Shown here one piece after another: positions 3 to 47,627 of a DNA stretch of 64,000 nt (its first letter is position 1; every line of letters starts with the position of its first letter). Origin of the DNA: Thermoanaerobaculia bacterium (GTDB lineage: Bacteria > Acidobacteriota > Thermoanaerobaculia > Multivoradales > JAIOJS01); the NCBI GenBank assembly GCA_030429235.1, contig JAUIDB010000010.1, positions 13,334 to 77,333 on the forward strand. The letters run 5' to 3'. Below the pieces are notes generated by a model. It was not told where the DNA came from and did not search any database. It saw only the letters and a list, made by a program, of their open reading frames with translations. The position numbers were made by a program, and so were the translations under genes.

Positions 3-920
3 TACTTGGGCCATCTGCTGGTAGGAGGGTCGGTCCGCGACGTCGAACTAGCCAATGGCCACGCCTACCTGGCAGGCAGCGGAGGCTTTACGGTATTGGA
101 TACTTCGTCACCGTGGATGCCAACTGTGTCTGCGAGGTTTGAAACCCAGGGCCGAGCCCTTGATGTCTCGTTGGATTCTGGATTGGCCTATGTTTCCGTC
201 GATGGTCCCGAGGGCCTGTTGATTTATGACTTGGGAGACCCAGGAGTCCCGGTGCTGCTCGGTTCACTTGCGTCGGCATCCGCAGCCGAAGAGGTTTCCG
301 TTAGGGGCGGCTATGCGTTCTTGGCATCACCCTTTCTTGATCTGAAGATCGTTGATATCAGCGTTCCGTCAGCGCCAATCGAAGTTGCTTCGGTAGTAGC
401 CGGGGCCTCCCAGACGACCGCCCTCAATGGCGACTACGCCTATAGCGCCGGTTCTCAACTGGCGGTCATCGATGTCTCCGTTCCGTCCAACCCGGTGGTT
501 CTGGCCTCTCAGGGGTTGCCCTTCTCAATAAGCGACTCTGCAGTTCGCAATGGGGTGCTCTACTTCTCCTCTTCCGGCCTGCGCGTTTTTGACACTGTCG
601 ATCCTCTTTCTCCGAACCAAATCGGATTGCTGTCTCTGGCGGGAGGTTCTTCCCACGATTTGGTCCTCGAGGCCGACCTCGTCTACCTGGCTGCCGGCCT
701 AGGTGGTGTTCGGGTAGTAGATGTTTCTGCGCCCACGGCACCTCGGCAAGTAGCGTATCGCGGTACCTCGTACGCTCGTGGAATTGCGGTTGGTGGTGAT
801 CGGGTTGCTGTAGCCAAGGACGGGCAAGGTCTGTCGATTCTGCAAGGCTGCGCAGGGCTGCTTTTTGCCGATGGTTTTGAGTCCGGGGATACCGTGGCCT
901 GGCCCCAGAGTAGTCCGTAG
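3..920 (+). CDS. LVIVD-repeat beta-propeller secreted protein, 5' end outside the window, with C-terminal FADGFESGD tail
   Basis: ORF is open to the window edge. It has six to seven ~45-aa repeats, each ending in a hydrophobic-x-D-x-S-x-P strand (LLIYDLGDPGVP, LKIVDISVPSAP, LAVIDVSVPSNP, VRVVDVSAPTAP), as in LVIVD repeats. It ends LLFADGFESGDTVAWPQSSP. Confidence 0.75.
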   Translation, partial: YLGHLLVGGSVRDVELANGHAYLAGSGGFTVLDTSSPWMPTVSARFETQGRALDVSLDSGLAYVSVDGPEGLLIYDLGDPGVPVLLGSLASASAAEEVSVRGGYAFLASPFLDLKIVDISVPSAPIEVASVVAGASQTTALNGDYAYSAGSQLAVIDVSVPSNPVVLASQGLPFSISDSAVRNGVLYFSSSGLRVFDTVDPLSPNQIGLLSLAGGSSHDLVLEADLVYLAAGLGGVRVVDVSAPTAPRQVAYRGTSYARGIAVGGDRVAVAKDGQGLSILQGCAGLLFADGFESGDTVAWPQSSP

Positions 921-1197
921 CTCTTGCTCTTCAGTGGCGGCTGAACTTCGTGCCAGATGGGAGTGCGTCAAGGTGGGGTTCACCCCTTATACCGTCGTTT
1001 GTTTGGGGACTTCGCCTACGAGCCAACCGCCGAAGATCTGAGGTTTTGGAACGAGTGGGCCGAGGAAGGCAGGAGAGTACTGGGTGCGGGCCGGGTCGGA
1101 TTGCGGGAGTTGGTCGAACCGAACGGTTGGTTCCTCGAACCCTCGCTAGTTCGCGCTAGGATCGCCCCTCGAATCCAGCCACACGAGGAACGTCTCC

Positions 1198-2661
1198 ATG
1201 ATCCGACTGAACCAGCTCCGCTTGCTGACCCTCTTGGTCACGATCGCCGCCGCCCTGCTGCTTGCGAGTCCCTCCGCCTCGACGGAGGCGGGGGAGACCT
1301 CCGATCTGCTGCTGATTCTCGACGCCTCGGGGTCGATGTGGGGGCAGATCGACGGCGAGAACAAGATCGTCATCGCTCGTCGCGTCATGGCGGGCCTGAT
1401 CGAGGGGCTTCCGGACGAGAGCGAGGTGGGGCTGGTGGCCTACGGGCATCGCCGTGAGGGCGACTGCGAGGACATCGAGACCGTAGTGCCGATCGGGCCG
1501 CTCGACCGCGGTGCCCTCACCGGGCGGATCGGGGAGCTCAACCCCAAGGGCAAGACGCCGATCACGCGTTCGGTCGAGGAGGCGTTCGCCTCGGTTCGGG
1601 GGCGGGAGGAGCCGACCACGATCGTGCTGGTCAGTGATGGACTGGAGACCTGTGGGGGCGACCCCTGTGCCACCGTGCGCGCGGCGGCGGAGGAGGGGAT
1701 CGACTTCGTGCTCCACGTGGTGGGTTTCGACGTCGCCAAGGAGGACGTCTCGTCGCTCGAGTGTGCGGCCCAGGCGGGGAACGGGCTCTACCTGACGGCG
1801 GAGACCGCAGGGGAGCTGGGAGCGGCGCTGGATCGGGCGGTGGCGATGCCGGCCGAGGTGCCGGGGGGGCGGCTGTCGGTCAAGGTGATCGCCGATGGCG
1901 AACTGGCCGACGCCGCGGTCCACGTCACGCGGTCCGCCGACGGTGAAGAAGCTGGTGGCGGACGCACGTACACCAGTCCCGAGACGAATCCGCGCATCAT
2001 TCCGCTGGCCGATGGTACCTACGACGTCGAAGTGACCGCGGTCGGCCTGCGCGGCGACAACCAGCGAACCTTCGCCGAGGTGGTCATCGCCGAGGACGGC
2101 GAGATGGTGGAGAAGGTAGTCGACTTCACCGCCGGCGAGGTCACGATCGAGGTCACCCGCAACGGCGAGCTCTCGGACGCCACCGTCCGCGCCTACCGCA
2201 GCGGCACCACCGAGCAGGTCGATGCCAGCCGGAGCTACGCCGCTTCCTCCTCGAACCCGGTACGGTTTCGCCTCACCGCCGGCACCTACGACGTAGAGAT
2301 CGGCTCGGTCGAGATGAGCGACAAACCCGAGCACCGCTGGGAAGGCGTGGTCATCGAACCGGGCGGACTCGCCGAACTCTCGCACGACTTCACCAGCGGC
2401 ACCTTGAAGGTCGGCGCCACCCTGGCCGGCGAACTGGTCGACGCCACCACCTCGGTCCGCCGGGTCTCCGACGGCAAGGCAGTGGCCCAGGGCCGAACCT
2501 ACACGAGCCCCAAGTCGAATCCCAAGACCTGGGATCTCGCTCCTGGCCGCTACCGAGTTACGGTCAAGGGGGTACGGCTCGAGGGGGATCCCCGCCGGGA
2601 GGTCGAGTTGGAGGTCCGGGCAGGTGAGATCACCGAGACGATGGTTGAGTTCGACGGGTGA
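1198..2661 (+). CDS. Secreted von Willebrand factor type A (VWA) domain protein with three C-terminal ~88-aa tandem repeats
   Basis: Signal peptide LLTLLVTIAAALLLASPSAS. MIDAS-type DxSxS motif in LLLILDASGSMWG, followed by VSDGLETCGG. Three similar modules run from about nt 1864 to 2658. GAGGA lies upstream of the ATG. Confidence 0.85.
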   Translation: MIRLNQLRLLTLLVTIAAALLLASPSASTEAGETSDLLLILDASGSMWGQIDGENKIVIARRVMAGLIEGLPDESEVGLVAYGHRREGDCEDIETVVPIGPLDRGALTGRIGELNPKGKTPITRSVEEAFASVRGREEPTTIVLVSDGLETCGGDPCATVRAAAEEGIDFVLHVVGFDVAKEDVSSLECAAQAGNGLYLTAETAGELGAALDRAVAMPAEVPGGRLSVKVIADGELADAAVHVTRSADGEEAGGGRTYTSPETNPRIIPLADGTYDVEVTAVGLRGDNQRTFAEVVIAEDGEMVEKVVDFTAGEVTIEVTRNGELSDATVRAYRSGTTEQVDASRSYAASSSNPVRFRLTAGTYDVEIGSVEMSDKPEHRWEGVVIEPGGLAELSHDFTSGTLKVGATLAGELVDATTSVRRVSDGKAVAQGRTYTSPKSNPKTWDLAPGRYRVTVKGVRLEGDPRREVELEVRAGEITETMVEFDG

Positions 2662-3934: not shown

Positions 3935-3950
3935 TGGCACGTCAGTTGCT
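3935..3950 (+). promoter_or_regulatory. Sigma-54 (-24/-12) promoter candidate upstream of the Kelch-like gene
   Basis: TGGCACGTCAGTTGCT matches the consensus TGGCACG-N4-TTGCW at every specified position. It lies in a 400-nt intergenic region, about 120 nt upstream of the ATG at 4073. Confidence 0.6.
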
Positions 3951-4072: not shown

Positions 4073-5392
4073 ATGTTCAATCTCAAGAATCTAGTCATCG
4101 CGACGATTTGCCTTCTGGCGATCCCGGCTGTGCTGCCGGCGCAGTGGGTAATCAACGGTTGGATGCCGGCGGGCACGGTACCGATCGACTACCCGCCCAG
4201 TCCGTTCTTTGCTGCAAGCTACCAGGGACACCTGTTCGTAATGGATGGAGTGACCGCTTGGGTTGGAGAGGTAGACCCCTCGACCGGCAACATCCTGAGC
4301 TGGGAGGAAACCACGGCACCCGATCGGACCCAGTACCGAGCAGCTTTGGTGCCCACGAGTGCGGCCGTCGTGGGTGACTACATCGTGATACCCCATGAAC
4401 CCGAGTCGCTGGTCGCTCGGTTCAACAGCGACGGATCGATCGACGGGGACTGGCTTCCAGCCCCCGGACTCGTCAATGCAAGAGCCACGACCGGTGTTGG
4501 AGCGACCGCCGTGTCAGGCTCCTTCCTCTACGTCGTGGGGGGACATGGGCCCGGCTCGGCCCTGGGACGTGTAGAGGGAACTCTCGTCAACCAGGACGGC
4601 ACCCTGGCTCCCTGGCAAGACCTTGGATCCCTACCGGCCCCCGTGATCCTCCACGACCCAAGGGCTGATGTGATCGATGGCTTCCTCTACGTGTTCGGAG
4701 GAGAAGGAACGTCGCCTTCGGGCTCCTTGACCCACTCTCGGAACGTTCACCGGGCCCAGATTCAGCCAGACGGTACGCTTGGATCCTGGGTCAAGGTCGG
4801 TGACATGCTGCAGGCTCGCCCGCATGCCGGCCACCTGCTTGCAAACGGATCCGTCCATGTGGTTGCCGGCGGTGTTCACTCCTACATGACAAGTTCGGTG
4901 GAGTCAGCGACTCTTGCCGAGTTTGGGGAGACCGGGAGTCATATCCAGAACGCTCCCTTGCCCTACTCTCCGGGCCTCAACGAACTGGCTACGGCCGTAG
5001 TGGGGTCTTGGGGTTACGTCGTTGGTGGGAACACCCGACCGTTCGGTGGTGGTTTGGTTGCGGATGTTCTCGTCGCTCAGCTCGCACCCCTTTGCTCGGC
5101 CGATGGCGGCCCGTTTCATTTCGTTCGTCGACGTGGGAAGCCCAGGACAGAGTCTGCATCCTGGGTCGGATGCGGGGGCTCAGGGACGCTGCGGATCCTC
5201 AACAGCGGCACTTCTTCCGCGGTTGTTGTGCTCAACGGGGGCGAAGTAGCAGGGCCACAAGACTTCAACCCCAACGTGCAGGTCCTCGAGATTCCGATTC
5301 TGGACCTACCGACCGAGAACACCTTGGAGGTGACCATGAGGGGAGCTCCGGGTTCGAGTCTGCAGATCTCGTTCATAGCAGCAGGCTCTTGA
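4073..5392 (+). CDS. Secreted Kelch-like beta-propeller repeat protein with C-terminal beta-sandwich region
   Basis: Signal peptide MFNLKNLVIATICLLAIPAVLPAQ. Recurrent blade signatures with a GG doublet: FLYVVGGHG, FLYVFGGEG, VHVVAGGV, GYVVGGNT. Composition is lower in GC than the neighbouring genes. Confidence 0.7.
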   Translation: MFNLKNLVIATICLLAIPAVLPAQWVINGWMPAGTVPIDYPPSPFFAASYQGHLFVMDGVTAWVGEVDPSTGNILSWEETTAPDRTQYRAALVPTSAAVVGDYIVIPHEPESLVARFNSDGSIDGDWLPAPGLVNARATTGVGATAVSGSFLYVVGGHGPGSALGRVEGTLVNQDGTLAPWQDLGSLPAPVILHDPRADVIDGFLYVFGGEGTSPSGSLTHSRNVHRAQIQPDGTLGSWVKVGDMLQARPHAGHLLANGSVHVVAGGVHSYMTSSVESATLAEFGETGSHIQNAPLPYSPGLNELATAVVGSWGYVVGGNTRPFGGGLVADVLVAQLAPLCSADGGPFHFVRRRGKPRTESASWVGCGGSGTLRILNSGTSSAVVVLNGGEVAGPQDFNPNVQVLEIPILDLPTENTLEVTMRGAPGSSLQISFIAAGS

Positions 5393-6804: not shown

Positions 6805-7619
6805 CGAGACTCACCCTTCCGAGACAGTTCGAGTTGAATTGATTGGAGTGACTCCCCAGTTCCTGCTAGGAAGCGAGATACCGCCTGCTTTTTTTCTGGC
6901 CGGAGATCTAGGGTTGCCGGACAGAGCCTCTTCTTCGTACAGCTGATACGGGATCGTTCCCACTCGTCTATGGATTGCGCCAACTCGAGCAGTCGAAGCG
7001 CTACGGTTTCTCGCTGTCGTTCGTAGCTATCGATTCTGTGAGACAGGGTGTTCTCGGTCCGTTCGGTTGTCTCCCGGACCGCAGTGAGTTCCTTTTTCGT
7101 CTCATAGAGCTGTTCGAGTGTTTCGTTGGCTTTGGCTTGCAGGTCCACAAGTTCGTCCTCGACGGTTTGTATGTGCGCCCCGACCCCAGCGAGTAGAAGC
7201 TCGAAACTCGTACGGATTTCCGAGCGCACTTCGTCGTCGTAGTTCTGAAGCTGCCCCTCCACTTGACGAAAGACCTTCTCTCGATGATCGTTAAAGGCGC
7301 TGGGAATTTGGTCTACGTACTGCATCACCTGCTCGTTGAGTTCGAGGTGTCTACGCACCAGATCGTCGTGTTCACTCCGAAGTACTGATAGCTCGACTTC
7401 GTGAATCCGGAGTTCCTTCCGGAGGTCGGCCGTCAACTCGTTCGCTCGCTGAAGCTGATCTGAACAGCCCTGGCCTTCGGACCTGCATCTCTTGAGATCC
7501 CTTTCGCAGCAGGCTGCGGTGCCACTGATAAGAAAGACGAGCAGTAGCCGAGTCGGCAACGAGCGGCTCCGGCGGTGGAGGCTCCTTTCAGATCGAACCA
7601 TCATGGATTCTTTGTCCAT
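6801..7619 (-). CDS. Coiled-coil protein, possible lipoprotein, translationally coupled to the ankyrin gene
   Basis: N-terminus LLLVFLISGTAACC (lipobox-like). The rest is heptad-rich and E/L/R/Q-rich. The 4-nt GTGA overlap with the start of 5686..6804 supports co-expression. Confidence 0.6.
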   Translation of the reverse strand: MDKESMMVRSERSLHRRSRSLPTRLLLVFLISGTAACCERDLKRCRSEGQGCSDQLQRANELTADLRKELRIHEVELSVLRSEHDDLVRRHLELNEQVMQYVDQIPSAFNDHREKVFRQVEGQLQNYDDEVRSEIRTSFELLLAGVGAHIQTVEDELVDLQAKANETLEQLYETKKELTAVRETTERTENTLSHRIDSYERQRETVALRLLELAQSIDEWERSRISCTKKRLCPATLDLRPEKKQAVSRFLAGTGESLQSIQLELSRKGESR

Positions 7620-7850
7620 CCGATCTCCTTCTTCCGAGGCCTTCTCGGGCGGCCTTCACAAAACAACTCGTGGGGCCATGGATCTGCAAGGCCCGGGCCA
7701 AGCCCTCCCGGAGGCCTGGGTATGTCTGGACGCGATTTCCGGCGCGACCCCGAGTGCAAGCAGGTGAAGAGACTGGCTGTGGACGTTGCTAAGCTAGTGT
7801 CTACCCGTGTCTCTCGGAAGATGCGCGCTCCTGACACAATAGGGCCAGCA

Positions 7851-10577: not shown

Positions 10578-10638
10578 GTAGCGACTGTGCTATTCTGAGC
10601 GCACTTTCCGATCCGAGAAGAAGGGGGAGGCCTCACGC

Positions 10639-12414
10639 ATGCTGCGTTTTGTCGCCCGGAACGAGGGCCAGGAGCGTCGATTTCCGATCGCGGCCGATGG
10701 CGTGTGGACCGTAGGCTCGGCGATCGAGTGCGAACTCTCTGTCCCCTTCGACGGGGTCTCGCGGCGGCATGCCAGCCTCGAGCGCCGGGGAAGCCGAGTC
10801 TGGCTCACGGATTGTGGTTCCAAGAACGGCCTCAGGGTGGAGGGGCGGGTCGAGGCGCAGATCGAACTGCTGCCAGGGATTCGGGTAGACCTCGGTGGCA
10901 CGGTGGTCGAGATCGAAGAGGCAGCGTCGTCGGATACACGATTCGCGGTCGAGCTGCGGCGTTCGTCGAGCGTGGCTTCTCGACTGCGCACCAGTACGGC
11001 GGGAGCGATGGCCGGCGACGGACGTTCTTCACCCGCTGCCGCGCTCGCCTTCGTTCGGCGGTTCGAGCGAGCGTCGCTCCAACCGGGCTCGGAACTCTGG
11101 TCGCGACTCGTCGCCGAGACTCTGGAGATCCTCGAGGCCGAAACCGTGGCGGTGCTGCAGCGGGTTCCCGGGGAGCCTCGCGAGGTGTTGGAACAGTGCT
11201 GGGGCAGGCACCGGGTGCCAGGAGCCGAGGTAGAGGATCCGTGGAGCGCGGCCCAGCTCTCGGCCGAACTGGAAGGGGAATCGGCCAGAATCGTGGCCAT
11301 CCTGGGCCAGGGGGCCAAGGTCGATCGCTGGAAGGAGGACTTCTTCTCCTACCTGGCGACCCGCTGGCAGGAGCAGCGTCACGACCCTCCCGCTCCTCGC
11401 GCCCAGCCGGCCCAGGTCGAGCCGGAACGAGGCCCCGTGGTTCTCGGGCGCTCCGCCGCCATGGTAGAGGTCGAAACGCTGGCTCGGGCCGCGGCCGAGA
11501 GTGGTCTCAACGTCGTGCTCCTCGGCGAGACGGGGACCGGCAAGGAGGTTCTCTCACGCTTCATCCATCGTCTGCGTGCCACCGGGAAGGGTGAGCTGGT
11601 AGCGATCAACTGCGCTGCGATTCCCTCCGAACTCCTCGAAGCCGAACTCTTTGGCGTTGCCAGCCGAGTGGCGACCGGCGTAGATCCCCGCGAGGGGCTC
11701 TTCGTGCGCGCCCACGGGGGAACCCTTCTCCTGGACGAGATTGGCGAGATGCCCTACACGCTGCAGGCGAAACTGCTGCGAGCGCTCCAGGAGCGGGAGG
11801 TCATGCCGGTGGGAGGGCGACGGCCGATGCCGGTCGATCTTCGAGTCATCTCGACGACGCACCGTCCCCTGGCTCGGCTCGTGGCCGAGAAGAAGTTTCG
11901 CGCTGATCTCTACTACCGACTCCGCGGACTCGAGATCTGGCTTCCACCCCTCCGAGAGCGACTCGAAGACATTCCGGAGTTCGCCACTCTCTTTGCCCAG
12001 AGAGCAGCCCGTGCTTCGGGAAAGCGGGTCCGCGGGATCACCGAGCGTGCGCTGCGGCTTCTTACCTGCCACCGCTGGCCCGGCAACGTGCGGGAACTCG
12101 AGACCGACATGGAACGCGCTGTGGCGTTGTGTGCCGACGGAGGCAGCATCGACTCGCGGCTCTTCTCCCACCTGGATCCAGTCGCGGGACGACCTAGTTC
12201 CGTCTCGGTGCTCGAAGCCCCGACCTCGAGGGCCGTGGCGCCCAAGGCTGGCCACTCTACGGTCACACTGCGGGAGGAACTCGACGCTACCGAGCGCGAG
12301 CGAATCCGACGAGAGCTGGCGCTTTCGGGCGGCAACAAGTCGGAGGCCGCTCGAAGGCTCGGGGTGACCTGGAATGGGCTGGTGATGAAGATGAAGCGAT
12401 TGGGGTTACGGTAG
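10639..12414 (+). CDS. FHA-domain sigma-54-type enhancer-binding protein (AAA+) with Fis-type HTH and degenerate GAFTGA loop
   Basis: N-terminal FHA signature (GSAIECELSVPFDGVSRRHASLERRGSRVWLTDCGSKNGLRVEG). Walker A GETGTGKE and Walker B LLLDEIGEM. C-terminal HTH LSGGNKSEAARRLGVTWNGLVMKMKRLGL. The position normally occupied by GAFTGA reads RVATGV (nt 11665-11682). Confidence 0.85.
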   Translation: MLRFVARNEGQERRFPIAADGVWTVGSAIECELSVPFDGVSRRHASLERRGSRVWLTDCGSKNGLRVEGRVEAQIELLPGIRVDLGGTVVEIEEAASSDTRFAVELRRSSSVASRLRTSTAGAMAGDGRSSPAAALAFVRRFERASLQPGSELWSRLVAETLEILEAETVAVLQRVPGEPREVLEQCWGRHRVPGAEVEDPWSAAQLSAELEGESARIVAILGQGAKVDRWKEDFFSYLATRWQEQRHDPPAPRAQPAQVEPERGPVVLGRSAAMVEVETLARAAAESGLNVVLLGETGTGKEVLSRFIHRLRATGKGELVAINCAAIPSELLEAELFGVASRVATGVDPREGLFVRAHGGTLLLDEIGEMPYTLQAKLLRALQEREVMPVGGRRPMPVDLRVISTTHRPLARLVAEKKFRADLYYRLRGLEIWLPPLRERLEDIPEFATLFAQRAARASGKRVRGITERALRLLTCHRWPGNVRELETDMERAVALCADGGSIDSRLFSHLDPVAGRPSSVSVLEAPTSRAVAPKAGHSTVTLREELDATERERIRRELALSGGNKSEAARRLGVTWNGLVMKMKRLGLR

Positions 12415-14029: not shown

Positions 14030-16819
14030 ATGAGGAACAACGGCAGGGTGCAATCTCGACGCCGGTTCCTTCACAGATTGGGGATTGCGTGGGCGCTGGC
14101 TGGACTGCTCGCCAGTGCGACCGGACTCAGGGCGGGTGAGTCGGCGCCTGCGGCGATGGCGGCTGATCTCGGCGAGATTCCAGGGTGGACGTTTCTCGAT
14201 GCGGCGCCCGGGGGCTTTCAGGAACTCGACGGGATCGTCTACTTCTTTGCGCATGACGGTGTTCACGGGCAGGAACTCTGGCGAACCGATCTGACGGAGG
14301 CCGGTACCTGGATGGTCGAGGACATCTGTCCTGGCTTCTGTCACGGCATGACCAATGGCCCGCCGATGGTTCAGAGCGGTGGGGCGCTGTATTTCTTCGC
14401 CGACGACGGGGGGTCCGGGGGGGAGCTGTGGACTTCGCGAGGTACGGCCGAGACAACTCGGATCGTTCGGGACTTGCAGGCCGGCCCGGCCTCCTCCGCT
14501 TGTGGTCAGTTGATCGAGTTCGGAGGCCAGGTCGTGTTCGGTGCTGACGACGGCATCCATGGCTGCGAACTCTGGGTCAAACCCTCTTCGTGGGCGGGAG
14601 TCCAGCTGCTGGTCGATGCAGTTCCCGGCGCCGACTCCGGGTTCTCGTCCGGTTATCGCCGTCTCTTTCCGCTCGACGATCAGCTTCTCTTCTGGTCGCA
14701 GGACTCTCTCTGGACGACGGACGGTACTCCGGCTGGAACCGAGAAGGTCACCGAGGTCGTGGCGAACCTCGACGTGCCTTGGTTTCACGACAACGGCCCA
14801 CGGGCCTTCGACGGCAGGTTGTTTTTTCAAGGCTGGGACGCAGTACATGGCTGGGAACTGTGGGCCACCGACGGAACCGCAGCGGGTACGGGTCTGGTTG
14901 CGGACCTGGTCGCCGGTAGCGGCAGCAGTTCTCCGGACGACTTCGTGGTGCACGCCAGCCAACTCTGGTTCGCAGCCCGGGGCGAGGACCAGGACGGGGA
15001 ACTGTGGCGGAGCGATGGGACCTCGACGGGTACTGCGTTTGTCGCCGATGCGGACTGGGGTCCCCTGGGGAGTACCCCCGCTGGCGTCCTCTACGTGGTG
15101 CACAACGGAGTCCAGAGCGAGCTAAGGATCGCCGACGGGAGTCAGGTGAACACACTGGTCAGCGTAGAGGATGTTTACTTCTACTTCCTCTATCCTCGTC
15201 GACAGCTCGATGGTGGGGTCTTCCTGGCGCTGAACGCGGGGCAAACCGGTCCGGAGCCCTGGATCTCCGAAGGCACTCCCGAGACCACGCGGCTTCTCGC
15301 CGACATCTACCAGGGCGAGGAGGGTTCCATGTTCCTTCCTCTGGACACCGCAATCCAGCTCTCGACGGGAGAGATCCTGTTCAAGGCCTATTCCCCCGAG
15401 ATCGACTACTCGCCCTGGGTCAGCGATCAGACGACGGCTGGCACCCGCCGAATCAAGCGGATCGACGATCAAGTTTCGGCCGGGTATCCGGGACGACGAC
15501 TCCTCTATTCCAGCTTGGCCCCGATCGGACCACGATGCCTGACGAGTCGATACTCTCTGGAGTACAACCGCGAGGAGGCGTGGTCCTCGGCCGGAGACCC
15601 AGCGACGGTGGCTAGGATTCCCGTCCACCAGGGGCCTGGCGCCACGGTGCTTCAGGCAGATCCCGGACCTACTCCTGCCACTCGTTCCCGCGCCATTTTG
15701 AGAGTCCACGGGGAAGAGGGACCCAGCCTGTGGGGCACGGACGGTACGGTTCAGGGAACCGAGGAGATCACCGCGGCTTTCGGTGCGACGAGTCTGGGGC
15801 TCGAACGTTTCGTGGCGACTCCAGATCGCGTCTGGATCCAGAACCACGATCGGGTCTGGAGTACCGATGGAACCCTGGCCGGAACGGTGTGGGTTCCCTC
15901 CTGGAACCAGGTCAGAGACGCTGCCGTCGTCTCTGGCCGCACCTACCTGGCGCTCGGCAACAGCGGGACCGGAGTAGAACTCTGGCTTCAGCACCAAGGG
16001 GCAGCCCCGGTTCCGGTTCGCGACATCGAGCCAGGACCCGATAGTTCCACGCCATCGTGGCTGACGACCGGTTCCGAACCGAACCTCGGGGTCTTCTTCT
16101 TTGCCAGTACTACAGAGACTGGTCGCGAGCCCTGGTTCTCGGATGGAACTGCGGAGGGAACCTACCCGCTCGGGGACATCTTTCCTGGCGAGGAAGACTC
16201 TCGCGAGTTGACTGAGGAGCCCAATTCCGGCGGGGCCGTGGGGGCCTTCCTGGGGTCGACGCTCGTGTTCGCGGCCGATGACGGAGTCCACGGCAACGAA
16301 CTGTGGGCTTCGGATGGGAGTCCCGAGAGTGCGACTCTGCTTCTCGACCTCGTGCCGGGCAACGTGGGAAGCGAACCCGCTTGGTTTACCACCTTCGAGG
16401 ATCGGGTCTACTTCGTGGCCTCCACTCTGGAGCACGGACGAGAGCTCTGGCGGACCGACGGCACTCCGGAAGGCACCGAGATCGTGTTGGATCTGTTCCC
16501 GGGACGGCGTTCCGCTCTGCCCCACGATCTCTTGGTACGTGGTGACACTCTCTTCCTGGTCGCCGCCGACCCCGCCCACGGTTCCGAATTGTGGAGGCTC
16601 GACTCCGAGGGCCTCGAACTGCACCAGGACATCAATCCAGGGCCCGACTCGTCGTCACCGAGCTGGCTGGCGCTCGGTCAAGATCGACTCTGGTTCATGG
16701 CGACGGACGGTGTTCACGGGTTTGAACTCTGGAGCCTTCCGTTTGGGCTACTCTTTGCAGACGGCTTCGAATCTGGGGACGTCACCGCCTGGGGAGAAGC
16801 CGGGTCGGTCGTTCGCTAG
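14030..16819 (+). CDS. ELWxxDGT repeat protein (secreted), with C-terminal FADGFESGD tail
   Basis: Signal peptide, then more than 10 repeats such as GQELWRTD, GGELWTSRGTAETT, GWELWATDGTAAGT, DGELWRSDGTSTGT, GRELWRTDGTPEGT, GSELWRLD, GFELWSL. It ends LLFADGFESGDVTAWGEAGSVVR. Confidence 0.85.
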   Translation: MRNNGRVQSRRRFLHRLGIAWALAGLLASATGLRAGESAPAAMAADLGEIPGWTFLDAAPGGFQELDGIVYFFAHDGVHGQELWRTDLTEAGTWMVEDICPGFCHGMTNGPPMVQSGGALYFFADDGGSGGELWTSRGTAETTRIVRDLQAGPASSACGQLIEFGGQVVFGADDGIHGCELWVKPSSWAGVQLLVDAVPGADSGFSSGYRRLFPLDDQLLFWSQDSLWTTDGTPAGTEKVTEVVANLDVPWFHDNGPRAFDGRLFFQGWDAVHGWELWATDGTAAGTGLVADLVAGSGSSSPDDFVVHASQLWFAARGEDQDGELWRSDGTSTGTAFVADADWGPLGSTPAGVLYVVHNGVQSELRIADGSQVNTLVSVEDVYFYFLYPRRQLDGGVFLALNAGQTGPEPWISEGTPETTRLLADIYQGEEGSMFLPLDTAIQLSTGEILFKAYSPEIDYSPWVSDQTTAGTRRIKRIDDQVSAGYPGRRLLYSSLAPIGPRCLTSRYSLEYNREEAWSSAGDPATVARIPVHQGPGATVLQADPGPTPATRSRAILRVHGEEGPSLWGTDGTVQGTEEITAAFGATSLGLERFVATPDRVWIQNHDRVWSTDGTLAGTVWVPSWNQVRDAAVVSGRTYLALGNSGTGVELWLQHQGAAPVPVRDIEPGPDSSTPSWLTTGSEPNLGVFFFASTTETGREPWFSDGTAEGTYPLGDIFPGEEDSRELTEEPNSGGAVGAFLGSTLVFAADDGVHGNELWASDGSPESATLLLDLVPGNVGSEPAWFTTFEDRVYFVASTLEHGRELWRTDGTPEGTEIVLDLFPGRRSALPHDLLVRGDTLFLVAADPAHGSELWRLDSEGLELHQDINPGPDSSSPSWLALGQDRLWFMATDGVHGFELWSLPFGLLFADGFESGDVTAWGEAGSVVR

Positions 16820-35303: not shown

Positions 35304-35304
35304 C

Positions 35305-35844
35305 CTATCGATTCTCCAGGTGTTGTCTCAGTCGGTTCAGGCCGCTCCGAACCCTCGACTTGAGGGTGCCGAGAGGGAGCTCGAGACGGCGCGCCGTCTC
35401 CTCGTAGGTCAGCCCGCCGAAGTAGGCGAGCTCGAGGGCGCTGCGCTGCCCGTCGTCCAGCTGACCGAGAGCCTGTACCACAGCGAGACGGGTCTCGAGA
35501 GAGAGCCGCAAGGGTGGTTGGATCGGCTCCGATTCCAAGGCGCTGGTGGGACGACGTCCCTGGTAGCGCAGGCGATCGAACCACTTGTTGCGGGCGATGG
35601 TGAAGAGCCAGCCGGCGGCGACTCCGCGCCGGGCATCGAAGGTCGTGGCTCGGTCCCAGACGGCGAGAAAGACGTCCTGGAGCAGGTCGTCGACGTCAGT
35701 CTTCGCTGCACCGAGGCTGCTCAGGTAGGCGGCGATGCGACCGCCGTACCGCTCGTAGAAGGTCGCAAAGGCGTGGCGGTCGCCGCTGGCGACGCGTCGC
35801 AGCAGCTCCTGGTCATCGATCGTCGGTGTGGGCAAGGGAATCAC
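35305..35844 (-). CDS. ECF-type RNA polymerase sigma-70 family factor
   Basis: Region 2 (DVDDLLQDVFLAVWDRATTFD...WLFTIARNKWFDRLR) and region 4 (ALELAYFGGLTYEETARRLELPLGTLKSRVRSGL). GTG start with a GGAGA RBS. Confidence 0.85.
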   Translation of the reverse strand: MIPLPTPTIDDQELLRRVASGDRHAFATFYERYGGRIAAYLSSLGAAKTDVDDLLQDVFLAVWDRATTFDARRGVAAGWLFTIARNKWFDRLRYQGRRPTSALESEPIQPPLRLSLETRLAVVQALGQLDDGQRSALELAYFGGLTYEETARRLELPLGTLKSRVRSGLNRLRQHLENR

Positions 35845-36020: not shown

Positions 36021-37448
36021 ATGCTCTATCGTTTGTTTCGTAGAATGTTTCTCGCTCTGGTCTCGATCTCGCTCCTCGCTGCCGGCGCGTCGGCGAGCAC
36101 CCATCGAGGCCCGACCGTCGTCCCGACCGCGGAGGGTCAGATCGGGGAGACACCCGGGGTGGACGACCGGATCCTGGGGCCCCGCTTCGAGTCGATCCGA
36201 GGCCAGGCCGGCGAGGTCCTGTTGGGGAGCAGCGTGCTCTTCGGAGGGGTGATGCCGCCGCCGCCGGCCTTCGACTTCCTGACGGATCGGCTGCACGGCG
36301 CCAGCAATCCGGTACCGATCACCAGTGCCACGAGCTCCTTCCTGACGGTGCCGATGCAGTCTCCGGCCTCGGATCGGCGGCGCGCGGCCAGTGGGCTCGG
36401 TGACTTCGTGGCCTTCAGTTTCGCCGTCGACGGCTCATTGCCCCAGACGATGACGGTTCGGATCGCCACCTTCGACGAAGACGGGACGACGCTGGCCTCG
36501 GTGCCGGTGGCGGTCGATGTCCCGACGTTCAGCGTTCCGGACCCCTTGTTCACCAAGACCGGCGTAGCGGTCGACGACCAGGGTCGGGCTACCGTCGTCT
36601 TCACCCAATTCGACTCCGGGATTCCTACGGTGCGCGGTCAGCGGGTGAGTGTAGTGACGGGAGCCCCGATCGGTGGGTCGTTCCCGATCGGACCCGCGGC
36701 TCAGGCGAACCCTGACGTCGCTCTGCTCGATCCGGCGGGCGATCGACTGATCGTGGCCTCCAACCGCTTCACCAATCCCCCGGTGCTGGTCGGCAATATC
36801 GTCGACTTCTCCTCGGGCAGCCCCGTGGTCTTGCCGGAGTTCACGATCCCCAATACCCCGGCCAGTTTCGGCAACTTACTCACCGATGTTGCCGCAGACC
36901 CGGCCACCGGTACCTCCACCGTGGTCTGGGATCAGTTGACCGGCGTGCTCGGCAACCCGGCCGACGTGCGCGCCCGGCGCTTCGACGCCATGGGCAACCC
37001 CATCGGTGGCGACTTCCAGGTCAACACGCTCGATGCCAACGCGCAGGGCCAGGCGGCGGTGGCCTACGGACCGAACGGCAACTCGGCCATCATCTGGGCG
37101 GGAGATCCCGCCGCACCGCAGGGTCCCGAGGATCTCGACGTGTTCGGCCAGGCCTACGACGCCGACGGCAATCCGATCGGCGGCGAGGTGCCGGTGAACA
37201 CGTTCACGACCAACACCCAGGACCGGCCGACGGTTCGGTTTCTACCAGAGCCGGACGCGCAGGGTCGGTCCCAGTTCGCCGTCGCCTGGCGCGACACCGG
37301 GGACTCCACGGGGGCAACTCCGCGCGGCACCGGTCAGAGCTACCGCTGCTTCTCGATCGAAGGTCTGGAGGATCCTACGGAGATCTTCGCCGACGGCTTC
37401 GAGTCCGGGGACACGACATCATGGTCCGAGACGCAGCCCGGGTCATAG
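36021..37448 (+). CDS. Secreted repeat protein with C-terminal FADGFESGD tail
   Basis: Start re-set to ATG 36021 (MLYRLFRRMFLALVSISLLAAGASA). Repeated GNPIGG(D/E)xxVNT modules. It ends EIFADGFESGDTTSWSETQPGS. Confidence 0.7.
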   Translation: MLYRLFRRMFLALVSISLLAAGASASTHRGPTVVPTAEGQIGETPGVDDRILGPRFESIRGQAGEVLLGSSVLFGGVMPPPPAFDFLTDRLHGASNPVPITSATSSFLTVPMQSPASDRRRAASGLGDFVAFSFAVDGSLPQTMTVRIATFDEDGTTLASVPVAVDVPTFSVPDPLFTKTGVAVDDQGRATVVFTQFDSGIPTVRGQRVSVVTGAPIGGSFPIGPAAQANPDVALLDPAGDRLIVASNRFTNPPVLVGNIVDFSSGSPVVLPEFTIPNTPASFGNLLTDVAADPATGTSTVVWDQLTGVLGNPADVRARRFDAMGNPIGGDFQVNTLDANAQGQAAVAYGPNGNSAIIWAGDPAAPQGPEDLDVFGQAYDADGNPIGGEVPVNTFTTNTQDRPTVRFLPEPDAQGRSQFAVAWRDTGDSTGATPRGTGQSYRCFSIEGLEDPTEIFADGFESGDTTSWSETQPGS

Positions 37449-40800: not shown

Positions 40801-40803
40801 CGG

Positions 40804-42336
40804 CTACTGCTTCCCTCGATCCAGGTAGGCCAACCGCAAGGAGACCACGCCCCATGGGCTGCGGAACGACAGACCGCTGCTGACCTCGAACCCCCGTTCG
40901 AAGTCGGGCGCAGCGGGAGAACCGGCGAACGAACTGCCGTCGAACAGGGTCAGGGCCTGGGTCCAACGCAGTTCCCGGCTCCCGTGCCGACGGCTGGAGT
41001 GTAGGAGTAGGCTGTGTTGGAGCGAAGCCTGCAGTCGCCACACCGTCGAACGACTCGATCCGAGGCCCAGTCCCGAAGGCGCGACGTCGTCCACCTTGCG
41101 TTCTCCGGCCAGGATCCGACCGGAGACACCCAGCGACTGCCGGGCACCGAACGAGCGGTGGAGTTCCCCTCCCAGTGAGAGGCCGAGCAGGGACGAGTCC
41201 ATCTCCGCCAGCGGGGTCGTGGAGTCGAGGAAGGAGCGAATCGGGCCGAGCCGCGCGGTCAGGTGCTGCCACTCGATTCCCGCCTGCAAGCGGGCCCCGT
41301 CGGTGGGGAAGAGGGGGTCGTCGACCGAGTCGAATCGCCACGCCAACTCCAGCCGCTGGTCCTCACGGTCCTCGAAGCCCAGGGTGCTCTCGACCACCGG
41401 AGCGACGGCGGACCGACGGATCCCGGAATCGCTCCGCCGCGCTTCACCGCGGAGGAGCAGGGAGTGGTTGCGCCGCAGGGGGACTCCAAGGTCGAGCCGG
41501 AACCGGGTCGTGCGTTCGCCGGCGCTCCAGGTCGAGGCCGTCGGGTCGAGGACGTCGTGGAGCTGAGTACGGCACTCACTGCCGGCCGCCGGGACCGCGT
41601 CGTGGCCGATGGCCGACTCGAGAGAATCCACGATCTGCTGCCGCACGTCCTCGCAGTGCACGGTCGAGACGCTGAGGGTGGCCAGGCCCCCGCGGCCGAA
41701 AGGGTCGTAGCGGCTGACCCCCGCGGTGAGTTCGCCATCCCCACTGACGACGCCGAACGCGACGAGGCTCGGGCCGAGAGCGAAACGCCGACCGGCGAAC
41801 AGGGTCGTTCCGTCGACCCGATCGGTGGTGGCCAGCCCGTCGACCGAGACGTCGTGGGCCCACCAGGTGGCCTCGGAATACAGGCCGAAGACCCACCTTC
41901 GGACCTCTTCGACCCGAATCTGCAGGTGGTACAGACCGCGGGAGGAACCCTTCTCGAGCGAGAACTCGGCGTCCAGGACCAGGGGGAGCCGGACGATGCG
42001 GGCCATGGCCTGGCCGAGCTGCGACTCGCTGTAGGCGTGGCCCTCCTCCAACTGTGCCGTGTTGAGGAGGCTGGTCGTCGACAGCAGGGAGATGCCGTCG
42101 ACGGCGATCGTCTCGATCGCGAACCGAGGGCCCTCCGGGGGCGGCGGGGGCGAGGCGGCGTGCGTGGCCGGCGGGGGAGGCTGGGCGCGTCCCGTGGAGG
42201 GGCCCACCGCGGATCCCAGGAGGAGAGCGAGGCCGATCAGGACGACCGGCCGCCTCCAGCTTCCGCGGAGCCGGTTGCGGTGTGGCGGAGCGGGCCGCGG
42301 GATTCCCTGCACAAGGCCTGGTCGTCGGGTTCTCAT
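40804..42336 (-). CDS. POTRA-domain outer-membrane beta-barrel protein (Omp85/TpsB superfamily)
   Basis: Signal peptide. POTRA-like FAIETIAVDGISLLSTTSLLNTAQLEEGHAYSESQLGQAMARIVRLPLVLDAEFSLEKGS..LYHLQIRVEE. This is followed by ~400 aa of alternating beta-strand-like sequence. Confidence 0.7.
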   Translation of the reverse strand: MRTRRPGLVQGIPRPAPPHRNRLRGSWRRPVVLIGLALLLGSAVGPSTGRAQPPPPATHAASPPPPPEGPRFAIETIAVDGISLLSTTSLLNTAQLEEGHAYSESQLGQAMARIVRLPLVLDAEFSLEKGSSRGLYHLQIRVEEVRRWVFGLYSEATWWAHDVSVDGLATTDRVDGTTLFAGRRFALGPSLVAFGVVSGDGELTAGVSRYDPFGRGGLATLSVSTVHCEDVRQQIVDSLESAIGHDAVPAAGSECRTQLHDVLDPTASTWSAGERTTRFRLDLGVPLRRNHSLLLRGEARRSDSGIRRSAVAPVVESTLGFEDREDQRLELAWRFDSVDDPLFPTDGARLQAGIEWQHLTARLGPIRSFLDSTTPLAEMDSSLLGLSLGGELHRSFGARQSLGVSGRILAGERKVDDVAPSGLGLGSSRSTVWRLQASLQHSLLLHSSRRHGSRELRWTQALTLFDGSSFAGSPAAPDFERGFEVSSGLSFRSPWGVVSLRLAYLDRGKQ

Positions 42337-42412
42337 GGAGTCCGGACAGAGCCTCTCACAGGTTGCGCGGTGGCGCCAGGACGGCCCGCTCTCGCCACAG
42401 GGTCCATCCCGC

Positions 42413-43060
42413 CTAGAAGCGGTACCCGAGTCCGAGACTCAGGGAGTCGAAGTCGATGTCGACGGTTCCGTAGTCGACCAGCAGGTCGAGGCGGGGCGTC
42501 AGGTCGACGCGAGCGCCGGCACCGAGGAGTAGCTCGCTTCCAGTCAGCCGACCGAGGTACCCGAAGGTCGGTTGCACCGCCGAGATACGCTCTTCGTAAT
42601 AGCCCAGACCAACCCGTCCGAAGAGCGTAGTGCGGCCGAAATGGGTCTGCGGCACGAAGGCAAAGGTGAACAGTTCGAGGTCGGCCTCGACTTTGGCCAG
42701 CAGTTCGATGCAGAGAACCAGGGGGCCGGGAAAGCAGGCGGAACCCCAGCCCTCGAGATCATCGGCCCTTTGGTAGCCAACCTCGATGGCGAGGTTGCGG
42801 TGCAGTTCGAACCCGAAGACGACGGCTGGGGAGACCGCCTCGTTGTCGAAGTCCCAAGCGTGTAGGCCTTCGTAGGTGCGGTCGAAGGCCGCCAGTCCGC
42901 CCTTGAAGTCGACGTAGAAACGTTCCTCGGCCGCGCTTGGCGCCGCCAGGGCGAAGAGCACGCAGAGCCAGGCGAGGCCGGGAAGGAGCCTTCGAGACGT
43001 CGCAGGGGACCGGCGGGTCGTGGGGGCTGGGAGGTGGTTGCGGAGGAGGGAATGGTGCAT
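42413..43060 (-). CDS. Small outer-membrane beta-barrel protein (OmpA-like/OmpW-like porin family)
   Basis: Start re-set to ATG 43060 with an AGGAGA RBS. Signal peptide LAWLCVLFALAAPSAA. Alternating hydrophobic strands. C-terminal OMP signature LSLGLGYRF. Confidence 0.7.
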   Translation of the reverse strand: MHHSLLRNHLPAPTTRRSPATSRRLLPGLAWLCVLFALAAPSAAEERFYVDFKGGLAAFDRTYEGLHAWDFDNEAVSPAVVFGFELHRNLAIEVGYQRADDLEGWGSACFPGPLVLCIELLAKVEADLELFTFAFVPQTHFGRTTLFGRVGLGYYEERISAVQPTFGYLGRLTGSELLLGAGARVDLTPRLDLLVDYGTVDIDFDSLSLGLGYRF

Positions 43061-43103
43061 GGTGTCTCCTGGTCGGTGGAAAGGGTTCGATGCCTCTGAC
43101 GAC

Positions 43104-43119
43104 AGCAATGACCTTGCCA
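43104..43119 (-). promoter_or_regulatory. Sigma-54 promoter candidate (minus strand) for 42413..43060 and possibly the downstream operon
   Basis: The minus strand reads TGGCAAGGTCATTGCT, one mismatch to TGGCAC-N5-TTGCW with correct GG/GC spacing. It lies ~45 nt upstream of ATG 43060. Confidence 0.5.
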
Positions 43120-43309
43120 ACCTCGGGGGCGGAGGGCTCGGGTGGAGCGATCCTGGCCGATCCGAAGGTTGAGAAGAATCGGGGCCGGTCGGCGCCTCGT
43201 GTCCGAGAGGGGCGAGTCGTTCGTAGCCACCGACGGTGGTGTCTGGGAAACCAGACGGTTCCGCACCATGGAGCCCCGGTCACTGCCCGTTGGAAACGGA
43301 GGAATCGTC

Positions 43310-43325
43310 TGGCCTCGGGATTGCA
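43310..43325 (+). promoter_or_regulatory. Sigma-54 promoter candidate (plus strand) for 43353..43904
   Basis: TGGCCTCGGGATTGCA has the invariant GG and GC at correct spacing and a perfect TTGCA, with two mismatches in the -24 hexamer. It lies 28 nt upstream of ATG 43353. Confidence 0.45.
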
Positions 43326-43352
43326 CCGGCTTCCGAACCAGGAGGATCTCTG

Positions 43353-43904
43353 ATGACCAAACTTCTCTGTTCGACCCTTCTCCTACTCGTCGCTGGACCG
43401 TTGGCGGCTCTGCCGGATCTCTGGATCGGAGCTGGGGTGGGTAGTTCTCCCACGGCCGGTACCCAGGGCGCCAGCTTCCCCTCGGTCACCGAGACCGACG
43501 GGCCGAGCTGGCGGCTGAGCGCCGGCGCCGAACTGGGACGTTTTTTCGGTCTGGAACTTGCCTACCGGGACTTGGCGCGCCAGCTCTGTTGCGAGGGGTT
43601 CGCGGACCTCGGGTTCGATCTCTCGGTTCGAGGGCTCTCGGCGGCGCTCTCGAGTCGACTCCCCCTGAACCGCTTCTCGCTCTTCGCCAAGATCGGTGTC
43701 TTCACCTGGGAGGAGGAGGGCAACTTGCTGACGATCGCCGGGCCCCGCGACTTCGCCGCCGACGGCACCGACCTGTTGATCGGCGCGGGGATCGACTACG
43801 AACTCTGGCGCGACCTTGGAGTCCGAGCGGATTGGGAACGTCTCGAGTTCAACGATCTTTCGAGCGACCTCTTCTGGATCTCGGTGCAGTGGCGCTTCGA
43901 GTGA
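43353..43904 (+). CDS. Small outer-membrane beta-barrel protein
   Basis: Start re-set to ATG 43353, preceded by GGAGGA. Signal peptide LLCSTLLLLVAGPLAA. Beta-strand periodicity. It ends FWISVQWRFE. Confidence 0.65.
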   Translation: MTKLLCSTLLLLVAGPLAALPDLWIGAGVGSSPTAGTQGASFPSVTETDGPSWRLSAGAELGRFFGLELAYRDLARQLCCEGFADLGFDLSVRGLSAALSSRLPLNRFSLFAKIGVFTWEEEGNLLTIAGPRDFAADGTDLLIGAGIDYELWRDLGVRADWERLEFNDLSSDLFWISVQWRFE

Positions 43905-46274: not shown

Positions 46275-46385
46275 ACCTGGGCGATCCCCATAGAGTGGCC
46301 CCGGGAATGGTGGGTTGCGGGGAGCATGTTCATGCGCTTTCGTTGCCTGGGAGCGAGCGGCCATCATGGGGCGAGAGGAGGTCCC

Positions 46386-47627
46386 ATGCACCGAGCACTT
46401 GTTCTCTCCGGAGCGTTCCTGGTTTCGTCGTTCCAGCCCATCTGCGCCGACAGCTACGTCGTCGATACCGAGGCCGACGTCATGGCGACCGGCTGCTCGG
46501 ACATCGTGGTAGGCGACTGTAGCCTGCGCGGTGCGATCCAAAGGGCGAACCAGAATCCCGGGCTCGACGTGATCACCTTCGGCTTCGGGGTGGCCGACGT
46601 TGCGCTGGGAATCGTCGGTTCCTACGAGGATGACAATCAGCAGGGCGATCTGGACATCCTGGAGGAGGTAGTGATCAACGGCGGCGACGTGGTGACGATC
46701 GACGGCAGTCTGATCGGTGATCGAGTGTTCGACGTGATGACCAGCACGACCGTCGAACCGACGATCCTTCAGGGGCTCACAGTGACGGGCGGAGCGGCGC
46801 CGTCGGGAGACTCTCTCTTCGACGGTGGCGGCGTCCGCTGTGACTCTTCTCGGCTCCACCTCGAAGCCGTGGTGCTCGCCGGCAACGGTCCGGTCCGCAA
46901 TGGGGGAGGAGTGTTTGCCCTGTCGTGCGACCTCTCGGTCGTCACTTCCACCCTCGACCACAACACGGCGACCGGTCTGGGAGGTGGACTGCACTTCGAG
47001 TCCGGATCGGATCTTTCGATAGCCCACGTCGCCTTCGTGGCCAACGTCGCCAGCTCGGGGGGTGGGTTGCAAGTGCACTCGGCGAGCGCCACCGTCGAGA
47101 ACACGACCTTCAGCGGCAACGACGCCGACAACGATGGGAGTGCGTTGCAAGTTGCGTTCGGCGAGTTGGAACTGGGCTTCGTGACCGTGGTCGGAGGGAC
47201 CGGCAACAACACTCTGTCCAACGCCGCGTCGGTGGTTTCGACCGTGGCCAACTCGGTGATCGTCGGTACCTGTCAGGGGACCTTCACGACCGAGGGTGGC
47301 AATCTCGAAGCGCCCGGCGACACCTGCGGACTCGACCCTCTCGTCGACCAGTTCTCCGTCGCCGATGCCCTCCTGCAGCCGCTGGGCTTCTACGGGGGGC
47401 GGACGCCCTCCCATGCTCCGCGCTGGGACAGTCCCGCGGTTGACGATCCTCTCGGCGTCATCGCCGACTGTCCCACGGTCGATCAGCGCCTCCAGCCTCG
47501 ACCCGTCGATGGCAACGGGGATAGCATCGTCGGGTGTGATGCCGGCGCCGTCGAAGCGGACGAACTGATCTTCGCCGACGGATTCGAGTCGGGCGACACC
47601 CTCGCCTGGGGGGTTGCCAGCCAGTAG
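46386..47627 (+). CDS. Secreted parallel beta-helix protein with C-terminal FADGFESGD tail
   Basis: Start re-set to ATG 46386 with an AGGAGG RBS. Signal peptide. CSLRGAIQRANQNPGLDVITFG opening typical of beta-helix adhesin-like proteins. GGG(V/L) repeats. It ends LIFADGFESGDTLAWGVASQ. Confidence 0.7.
   Translation: MHRALVLSGAFLVSSFQPICADSYVVDTEADVMATGCSDIVVGDCSLRGAIQRANQNPGLDVITFGFGVADVALGIVGSYEDDNQQGDLDILEEVVINGGDVVTIDGSLIGDRVFDVMTSTTVEPTILQGLTVTGGAAPSGDSLFDGGGVRCDSSRLHLEAVVLAGNGPVRNGGGVFALSCDLSVVTSTLDHNTATGLGGGLHFESGSDLSIAHVAFVANVASSGGGLQVHSASATVENTTFSGNDADNDGSALQVAFGELELGFVTVVGGTGNNTLSNAASVVSTVANSVIVGTCQGTFTTEGGNLEAPGDTCGLDPLVDQFSVADALLQPLGFYGGRTPSHAPRWDSPAVDDPLGVIADCPTVDQRLQPRPVDGNGDSIVGCDAGAVEADELIFADGFESGDTLAWGVASQ

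Follow-up and report, generated by a model that had tools for sequence, protein, structure and literature searches.

The window analysed here is a stretch of 64,000 nt from the genome of a Thermoanaerobaculia bacterium (GenBank assembly GCA_030429235.1, contig JAUIDB010000010.1, positions 13,334 to 77,333 of the forward strand), and coordinates refer to it unless another locus is named. Four of its open reading frames (ORFs), all on the + strand, end in one C-terminal block, (L/I)FADGFESGDxxxW followed by 5-8 residues and the stop codon. This block is called the tail, and the proteins that carry it are called cargo. Cargo 1 (3..920, +) is an LVIVD beta-propeller (PF08309, 1e-27) whose N-terminus lies outside the window, and its tag (861..920, +) reads L-FADGFESGDTVAW-PQSSP-stop. 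Cargo 2 (14030..16819, +; 929 aa) is an ELWxxDGT repeat protein (TIGR04534, 1e-155) that ends in L-FADGFESGDVTAW-GEAGSVVR-stop (16751..16819, +). Cargo 3 (36021..37448, +; 475 aa) is a predicted exported repeat protein to which Pfam and NCBIfam assigned no family, ending in I-FADGFESGDTTSW-SETQPGS-stop (37383..37448, +). Cargo 4 (46386..47627, +; 413 aa) combines a right-handed beta-helix with a choice-of-anchor Q domain (NF041518, 1e-11, residues 327-391), which directly precedes the tail I-FADGFESGDTLAW-GVASQ-stop (47568..47627, +). Without the leading L or I, the tails start at nt 864, 16754, 37386, and 47571. An earlier note on this DNA had described four ORFs of differing fold that share one terminal block, and the translations and coordinates were as claimed in all four.

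A six-frame regular-expression scan of the window using strict and degenerate patterns returned exactly four matches, all of them 15-22 residues upstream of a stop; none was internal or N-terminal. The chance expectation for a fixed 9-mer in the ~128,000 six-frame residues is about 1e-6, by a rough estimate from amino-acid frequencies. The 39-nt tail cores are identical at 27-30 nt per pair, with different codons used at 4-7 of the 11-12 residues shared by each pair, and the 60-nt flanks are identical at 11/60-26/60 positions, which is the background level. Because the codons differ and the flanks are unrelated, the tail is conserved at the protein level, and a recent DNA duplication was ruled out, in agreement with the earlier note. 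Each tail is closed by a genuine stop, after which comes a short intergenic region or a convergent or neighbouring gene (for cargo 3, the next gene lies ~45 nt beyond on the opposite strand); readthrough or frameshifting into a downstream domain was ruled out on these grounds. After the W, the window tails hold just 5-8 polar or small residues, with no hydrophobic segment and no basic cluster.

N-terminal export signals were judged by eye and with a crude hydrophobicity heuristic. The signal peptides that had been noted on the three cargo with visible N-termini were confirmed by inspection. A full-length cargo 1 was found on a metagenome contig (L120, 6030-7937, 635 aa), and since its N-terminus is also signal-peptide-like, all four window cargo carry Sec-type or twin-arginine (Tat)-type N-termini and are predicted to be exported. 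The N-terminus of cargo 2 (14030-14140, +) holds a twin-arginine-like SRRRFL motif, so at least one tail-bearing protein may be exported folded via Tat.

Distribution and cargo of the tail

A total of 185,579 genomes, one per species, were scanned using the back-translated pattern FADGFE(S/T)GD. At ~39 bits of information, this pattern was expected to give a handful of matches by chance; at least 117 loci with at least 124 in-frame matches were obtained, and the counts of positions, taxa, and cargo given below are for the matches listed. About 105 of the 124 listed in-frame matches lie 13-33 residues from the stop, and 57 of them end exactly 18 residues after the motif F, which is numbered as position 0. 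Two features outside the search pattern recur in the tail proteins, W at +12 in 103/103 and I/L/V at -1 in 97/103, and the ending ...WSxxVP-stop is frequent. The consensus is (I/L/V)-F-x-D-G-F-E-(S/T)-G-D-x-x-x-W plus 5-8 residues, with the canonical end ...TSAWSxxVP-COOH and the invariant residues F0, D2, G3, F4, E5, G7, D8, and W12. A separate set of database fragments was obtained by a word-indexed protein search with the tail profile (233 candidates, all short), which gives position statistics only and no census; 101/120 of these fragments stop exactly 18 residues after F. The earlier note had proposed a wider motif search and a test of C-terminal position, and both the genome matches and the fragments proved to be mostly terminal.

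The listed loci with terminal copies belong to Thermoanaerobaculia/Thermoanaerobaculales, Holophagae, Acidobacteriota, Ca. Multivoradales, Ca. Sulfomarinibacteraceae, and unclassified 'bacterium', with a few metagenome-assembled genomes (MAGs) labelled otherwise; Ca. Multivoradales and Ca. Sulfomarinibacteraceae are themselves part of Thermoanaerobaculia. Besides the four copies in the 64-kb window, at least 3-5 loci were found in several MAGs with the strict pattern. On one Acidobacteriota MAG contig, four tail-bearing genes lie within 21 kb (L122, 7812-18703) and end in FMDGFESGD, FMDGFELGD, FQDGFEAGN, and FSDGFESGN, so the strict FADGFE(S/T)GD pattern undercounts the family. When 1.84 billion cluster representatives were searched exhaustively with a hidden Markov model (HMM), 6,776 proteins matched at E<=1e-3, a figure in which terminal and internal copies are mixed. 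Tandem double tails, ~21 residues apart, were found at the C-terminus of P0255, P0282, P0319, and others, for example ...IFADGFESGDTSAWSKLSSPFIFADGFESGDTTAWSG-stop. The tail is a genuine unit and is confined to a single lineage.

The cargo are diverse. The 103 listed tail-bearing proteins form 58 sequence clusters, of which 41 have a single member, and a Pfam census of 69 of these proteins gave 58 Pfam families. The enzymes include Peptidase_S8 subtilases (9), M14 carboxypeptidases (4), and glucose/sorbosone dehydrogenases (3), along with trypsin-like peptidases, one GH9, and a Porphyromonas-type peptidyl-arginine deiminase (PAD_porph); M6 peptidases are also among the cargo. Other families counted were FG-GAP (6), Beta_helix (5), BNR/sialidase-like (5), InhA-type MAM (5), and LVIVD (3). 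Judged by its sequences, the cargo set looks like a secretome. Signal-peptide-like N-termini were scored by the crude heuristic in 61/79 tail proteins versus 139/340 background proteins, which is the enrichment that the earlier note had suggested looking for.

Structure and origin of the tail

Pfam and NCBIfam models were searched against the four window proteins (E<=1), the isolated tails (E<=10), and the 69 census proteins, and none covered the tail. The source annotations of the matching proteins are 'hypothetical' or give the name of the cargo domain only. In the searchable literature, the motif strings were found in irrelevant peptide lists only, and nothing specific was found on Thermoanaerobaculia secretion or on choice-of-anchor domains. 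The earlier view that the tail is no named sorting or processing signal is borne out by both model collections: the tail is an undescribed tag, not detected by the curated models tested, and is frequent in a widespread, essentially uncultured class.

Cargo 4 was modelled with AlphaFold using 54 homologues. The mean predicted local distance difference test score (pLDDT) was 92, falling to 69/61/48 over residues 391-413, where no strands were formed. These residues make no contact with the body in the model, yet no block of the alignment is more conserved. In the model, the tail is thus outside the cargo fold and without intramolecular structure, which answers the part of the earlier note that called for predicting the tail alone. 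Strong conservation without an intramolecular role points to recognition of the tail in trans.

Internal copies of the motif indicate where the tail may have come from. Among the genome matches listed, these are mostly in Chloroflexota, Actinomycetota, Planctomycetota, Dormibacterota, Rhodothermales, and Vicinamibacteria. The internal motif opens a domain of ~190-290 aa with weak matches to Laminin_G_3 and Polysacc_lyase; in tandem arrays, this is a well-conserved domain of ~215 aa that starts FADGFESGDLSAWSS... and ends ...GTYYFDAFESRR. In an AlphaFold model of P0249 (residues 321-575), which covers one domain unit, a linker, and an orphan motif, strand 1 of a 16-strand sandwich (E14-17, pLDDT 76-87) is formed by the N-terminal motif, and the orphan C-terminal motif is unstructured (pLDDT 54-65). 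Foldseek placed the P0249 domain among ConA-like lectin folds; its best PDB matches were TtX122 (8q28, E 5e-9) and the globular domain of calreticulin, and the lectin-like domain of botulinum HC and alginate lyase were also matched. A PDB sequence search with the domain profile gave nothing significant; the start of the calnexin lectin domain aligned weakly with profile positions 212-252, the orphan-motif region. P0249 and P0242 have n domains and n+1 motifs in the order [motif-domain]n-motif-stop, and the full motif-bearing domain also occurs in Thermoanaerobaculia, in the L061 subtilase.

Terminal and internal copies were compared using 262 of the former and 137 of the latter. At +9, 74% of tails have T, whereas 76% of internal copies have L/F; the fixed-length ...(T)VP-COOH ending is confined to tails. 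The stricter conservation of +1 and +8 in tails partly reflects how the set was collected, which does not apply to the differences at +9 and at the terminus. The tail shares the signature F-x-D-x-F-E-x-G-x-x-x-x-W with the opening of the ConA-like lectin/LamG jelly-roll (calnexin/calreticulin) but differs in lacking the domain body, in having a polar and not a hydrophobic +9, and in its fixed length and VP-COOH. From these sequences and models, the tail apparently arose from beta-strand 1 of a ConA-like lectin domain, a strand since detached and specialised. This origin was not anticipated in the earlier note and is a new finding here. A match to the boundary of a described domain had been named there as grounds for rejecting the tail as a signal of its own. 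The result is divided: the motif does open a ConA-like domain, but no curated model covers it and the terminal version is distinct. A signal arising from the first strand of a lectin fold would be an unusual route.

Endings of homologous cargo and known systems

Homologues of cargo 4 share the Q domain DQRG..RP.DGDGD...CD.GA.E, and their endings after it vary. The majority of near and mid-distance relatives end in the tail. Others end in a hydrophobic helix and basic cluster (P0155, P0158, P0210, P0216), in YLPLVxK/R, in GGCSLIR, in RTX repeats, in nothing, or in a shorter '...FADGFE-stop'. ELWxxDGT homologues similarly end in SLH, in a transmembrane (TM) segment plus basic cluster, in the C-terminal domain (CTD) of the type IX secretion system (T9SS; PF18962), in YLPLVxR, in a dockerin-like module, or in the tail, and many of the SLH-ending ones are from Thermoanaerobaculia. 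Because homologues of two unrelated cargo families carry surface-anchoring or sorting modules at this place, the tail occupies the slot of such modules and is interchangeable with known anchors.

Several endings were recorded beside this result. The window encodes a second beta-helix protein (30065-32230, +) with a choice-of-anchor Q domain (residues 467-527) and a Lamin-tail domain; it ends '...VPVELLGFSVE-stop' without a FADGFESGD tail, so one genome uses different C-terminal endings after the same Q domain. TM-free endings recur after the same cargo domains, 'YLPLVxK/R' in P0176, P0188, P0197, P0204, P0227, P0233, P0411, and P0467 and 'GGCSLIR' in P0173, P0187, and P0199, and they may be further unnamed or poorly known tags. 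In the cultured gammaproteobacterium Tahibacter amnicola (CP104694.1), a choice-of-anchor Q protein (P0162; L119, 10001-11509) ends '...VFADGFE-stop', and a neighbouring FG-GAP protein (L119, 795-2066) ends '...RIFADGWGMRWPDQP-stop'; the endings FADGFE, FADGFD, and FADGFQ were seen in several further homologues. This pseudomonadotal ending has the same (I/V)-F-A-D-G-F-E opening after the same Q domain as the tail but stops at E, without the SGDxxxW half, and occurs in a cultured organism. It may be a related short tail, open to experiment, and would then be an experimental entry point.

C-terminal SLH was also noted on the Thermoanaerobaculia ELWxxDGT proteins P0403, P0406, P0435, P0452, and P0471, which implies that SLH-type attachment to cell-wall polymers probably operates in this class. 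SLH domains, which fold as modules of ~55 aa and attach to polymers of the cell wall, share the slot and no sequence similarity with the tail, and their presence there suggests that the C-terminal slot of ELWxxDGT proteins serves cell-surface retention.

Seven attributes of small C-terminal sorting domains are listed in bioRxiv 10.1101/2023.06.07.544157, among them at least three nearly invariant motif residues, a hydrophobic TM segment after the motif, a terminal basic cluster, an N-terminal signal peptide in most members, and unrelated member families. Compared with these tripartite signals, the tail has five of the seven attributes (C-terminal location, multiple copies, an invariant signature, signal peptides, and diverse cargo) but lacks the hydrophobic TM segment and the basic cluster, being acidic and ending in ...SxxVP. 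The absence of both places it outside the sortase/exosortase-type class and, with the lack of any model match, makes an intramembrane sortase-type protease an unlikely reader. PEP-CTERM/exosortase, LPXTG, GlyGly-CTERM, MYXO-CTERM, and PGF-CTERM resemble the tail in their narrow taxa and in taking the same slot in homologous cargo. Neither PEP-CTERM (TIGR02595) nor any other NCBIfam CTERM model matched the four proteins (E<=1) or the isolated tails (E<=10), and with only 5-8 polar or small residues after the W, the contrast with LPXTG, PEP-CTERM, MYXO-CTERM, and GlyGly-CTERM drawn in the earlier note holds.

The T9SS CTD (PF18962/TIGR04183) is likewise C-terminal, has no membrane anchor, and is found on Sec-exported cargo. 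Its cargo classes are also alike (proteases, Porphyromonas-type peptidyl-arginine deiminase, and adhesin-like repeats), and it takes the same slot in ELWxxDGT homologues. It is a folded beta-sandwich of about 70-100 aa, whereas the tail has 18-22 aa, is predicted to be unstructured, gives no HMM match, and belongs to another lineage. As the earlier note had held, the tail is far too short, and also too unstructured, to be a T9SS CTD. Cargo of type I secretion signals leave the cell in one step and have no N-terminal signal peptide, unlike the window cargo with their Sec-type or Tat-type N-termini.

Readings of the tail and neighbouring genes

The tail is read here, with moderate confidence, as a lineage-specific C-terminal tag on exported proteins that is recognised in trans, analogous to PEP-CTERM, the T9SS CTD, and SLH, and evolved from strand 1 of a ConA-like domain. 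Tail-bearing cargo would be exported to the periplasm by Sec or Tat, and a dedicated partner would read the free acidic tail in trans. Whether a receptor, part of a translocon, or an enzyme for processing or attachment, this partner would direct the cargo across or onto the outer membrane or the cell surface; the tail might be cleaved in the course of this. By analogy, the tail would have a sorting or anchoring function and fill the role that PEP-CTERM, the T9SS CTD, or SLH has in homologous cargo elsewhere. It is possible, though doubtful, that the tail is in addition the address label of an undescribed system for outer-membrane translocation or surface attachment in diderm Acidobacteriota, a short, acidic, unstructured peptide free of any membrane anchor, taken over from strand 1 of a lectin fold and read via its free C-terminus by a dedicated machine or by an incomplete lectin domain that it would complement. 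If so, it would represent a sorting principle distinct from sortase/exosortase, T9SS, and SLH and would be categorically new.

C-terminal sorting signals are the main route from sequence to the surface and secreted proteome, and the discovery of each has, up to now, brought a new secretion machine or processing enzyme to light. The cargo set under this tail is large, with many proteases and adhesin-like proteins, and the tail is missed by current annotation pipelines. A tail profile would give better secretome prediction for these organisms and a query for phylogenetic profiling toward the partner.

Several findings weigh against a tag read in trans. The motif is not exclusive to C-termini, since in Chloroflexota, Actinomycetota, Planctomycetota, and others a ConA-like domain begins with it, often in tandem arrays, and the top of the exhaustive HMM search is held by proteins with 2-6 internal copies, 210-295 aa apart. 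The residues invariant in tails (F0, D2, G3, F4, E5, G7, D8, and W12) are equally invariant in the internal copies, so the tail could still make contacts of the fold type and not act as a linear signal. The window endings after W (PQSSP, GEAGSVVR, SETQPGS, and GVASQ) are non-canonical, and VP-COOH is therefore not universal. No cultured isolate is among the listed terminal-copy loci. Finally, no candidate sorting enzyme or transporter was found near tail genes in the clustered neighbourhoods (~1 Mb).

These neighbourhoods comprised 710 proteins from the at least 117 loci and the window, which were clustered at two stringencies, with recurrent families annotated using Pfam. Among the loci listed, the recurrent neighbours are generic: Ser/Thr kinase-TPR proteins (15/117 loci), sigma54 activators (10), ABC ATPases, hybrid histidine kinases, sulfatases, SDRs, beta-lactamase-fold proteins, and GGDEF/EAL proteins. 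Three further annotated neighbourhoods held nothing specific. A reader encoded away from its cargo is usual for many-to-one sorting systems, and the partner, if there is one, is probably encoded elsewhere. The proposal of a genome-wide cargo class with a dedicated partner, made in the earlier note, has therefore fared unevenly. Terminal position, 58 cargo clusters, signal-peptide enrichment, several copies per genome, and narrow taxa favour the cargo class, and no partner was seen in the window or the ~1 Mb of loci. At one locus (L123, 6023-7437), a tail-bearing beta-helix gene is preceded, at a distance of 2.5 kb, by genes for a PadR regulator and an Rce1-like CPBP intramembrane protease. Some sorting signals that contain Cys are processed by CPBP proteases. 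This one was rejected as the reader: it was seen near a tail gene just once, in a PadR operon of a common type, and the tail lacks a transmembrane segment.

An alternative that is unlikely but deserves weight is strand donation, in which the orphan strand 1 would insert into the ConA-like body of a surface receptor devoid of a first strand, or of a neighbouring subunit, and give non-covalent docking or polymerisation. This would resemble the donor-strand complementation of chaperone-usher pili. It would account for the internal motif being the first strand of the 16-strand sandwich, for the fold residues kept invariant in tail and domain, and for the n+1 motifs per n domains in P0249 and P0242, and the L061 subtilase places the full domain in Thermoanaerobaculia. 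The +9 position, however, is hydrophobic L/F in most internal copies and polar T in most tails, and AlphaFold leaves the orphan copy of P0249 free, with no swap into the domain. Six-frame ORFs of the window and the ~1 Mb of loci gave no ConA-like body lacking strand 1, only motif-carrying domains, which is a weak negative.

It is improbable that a periplasmic protease or PDZ-type reader uses the tail as a handle, that is, as a pro-peptide, latency element, or quality-control tag bound via its free carboxylate and removed, with no role in localisation. The fixed distance from motif to C-terminus in most copies, the unstructured and exposed tail in the model, and the many proteases among the cargo, which commonly need latency control, would suit such a handle. 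Many cargo, however, are non-enzymes (LVIVD, ELWxxDGT, FG-GAP, and beta-helix adhesin-like proteins), the modules replaced by the tail in homologues are for anchoring or sorting and are not pro-peptides, and the length after W varies from 5 to 8 residues in the window.

An intramolecular or Ca2+-binding cap, in which the acidic D-G-F-E-S-G-D would bind metal or cap the last domain without any sorting role, appears quite improbable. Two points favour it: structural Ca2+ is common near the terminal strands of ConA-like domains, and the three invariant acidic residues are spaced i, i+3, i+6. The tail nevertheless follows at least 58 unrelated cargo clusters of differing fold, lies free of the body in a model of high confidence, and in some proteins sits on a Pro-rich linker or is tandemly duplicated. 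That the tail is a non-functional remnant of truncated ConA-like domains, or a gene-calling or assembly artefact, is very hard to credit: the motif does equal the start of a real domain and some database matches are fragments from short contigs, but the conservation data already contradict it, with the sequence kept against synonymous change, residues outside the search pattern invariant, a precise length and tail-specific residues recurring in hundreds of independent genes, and a genuine stop at each window tail with a neighbouring gene or intergenic region after it.

Other features of the window lie near the cargo genes. A perfect sigma54 -24/-12 element, TGGCACGTCAGTTGCT, was found at 3935-3950 (+), upstream of an ORF for an exported protein of unknown family (4073-5392). 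Sigma54 promoters for the cargo genes were rejected, as the window holds about as many matches as chance predicts, and no tail-bearing gene has one upstream. A Ser/Thr kinase-TPR gene and an FHA-sigma54 activator gene (7575-12414, +) lie upstream of cargo 2, and the same order of kinase, activator, and cargo is seen at L091 (2-6516). A kinase-TPR gene is also present ~4.7 kb upstream of the Tahibacter short-tail protein (L119, 2582-5350). The recurrence of kinase-TPR genes may reflect regulatory coupling or the mere abundance of that family. The stretch 40804-43904, which lies between the genes for cargo 3 and cargo 4, holds a gene of the Omp85 family (weak PF01103) and two genes for small outer-membrane beta-barrels, an arrangement that did not recur near the tail genes of other loci. 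Two pairs of an ECF sigma factor and a putative anti-sigma factor were also noted, one divergent from cargo 3 (34626-35844, -) and one upstream of a sulfatase (54862-56246, +). The sigma factor at 54862-55449 was assigned from precomputed Pfam in L118 and the remainder from N-terminal sequence.

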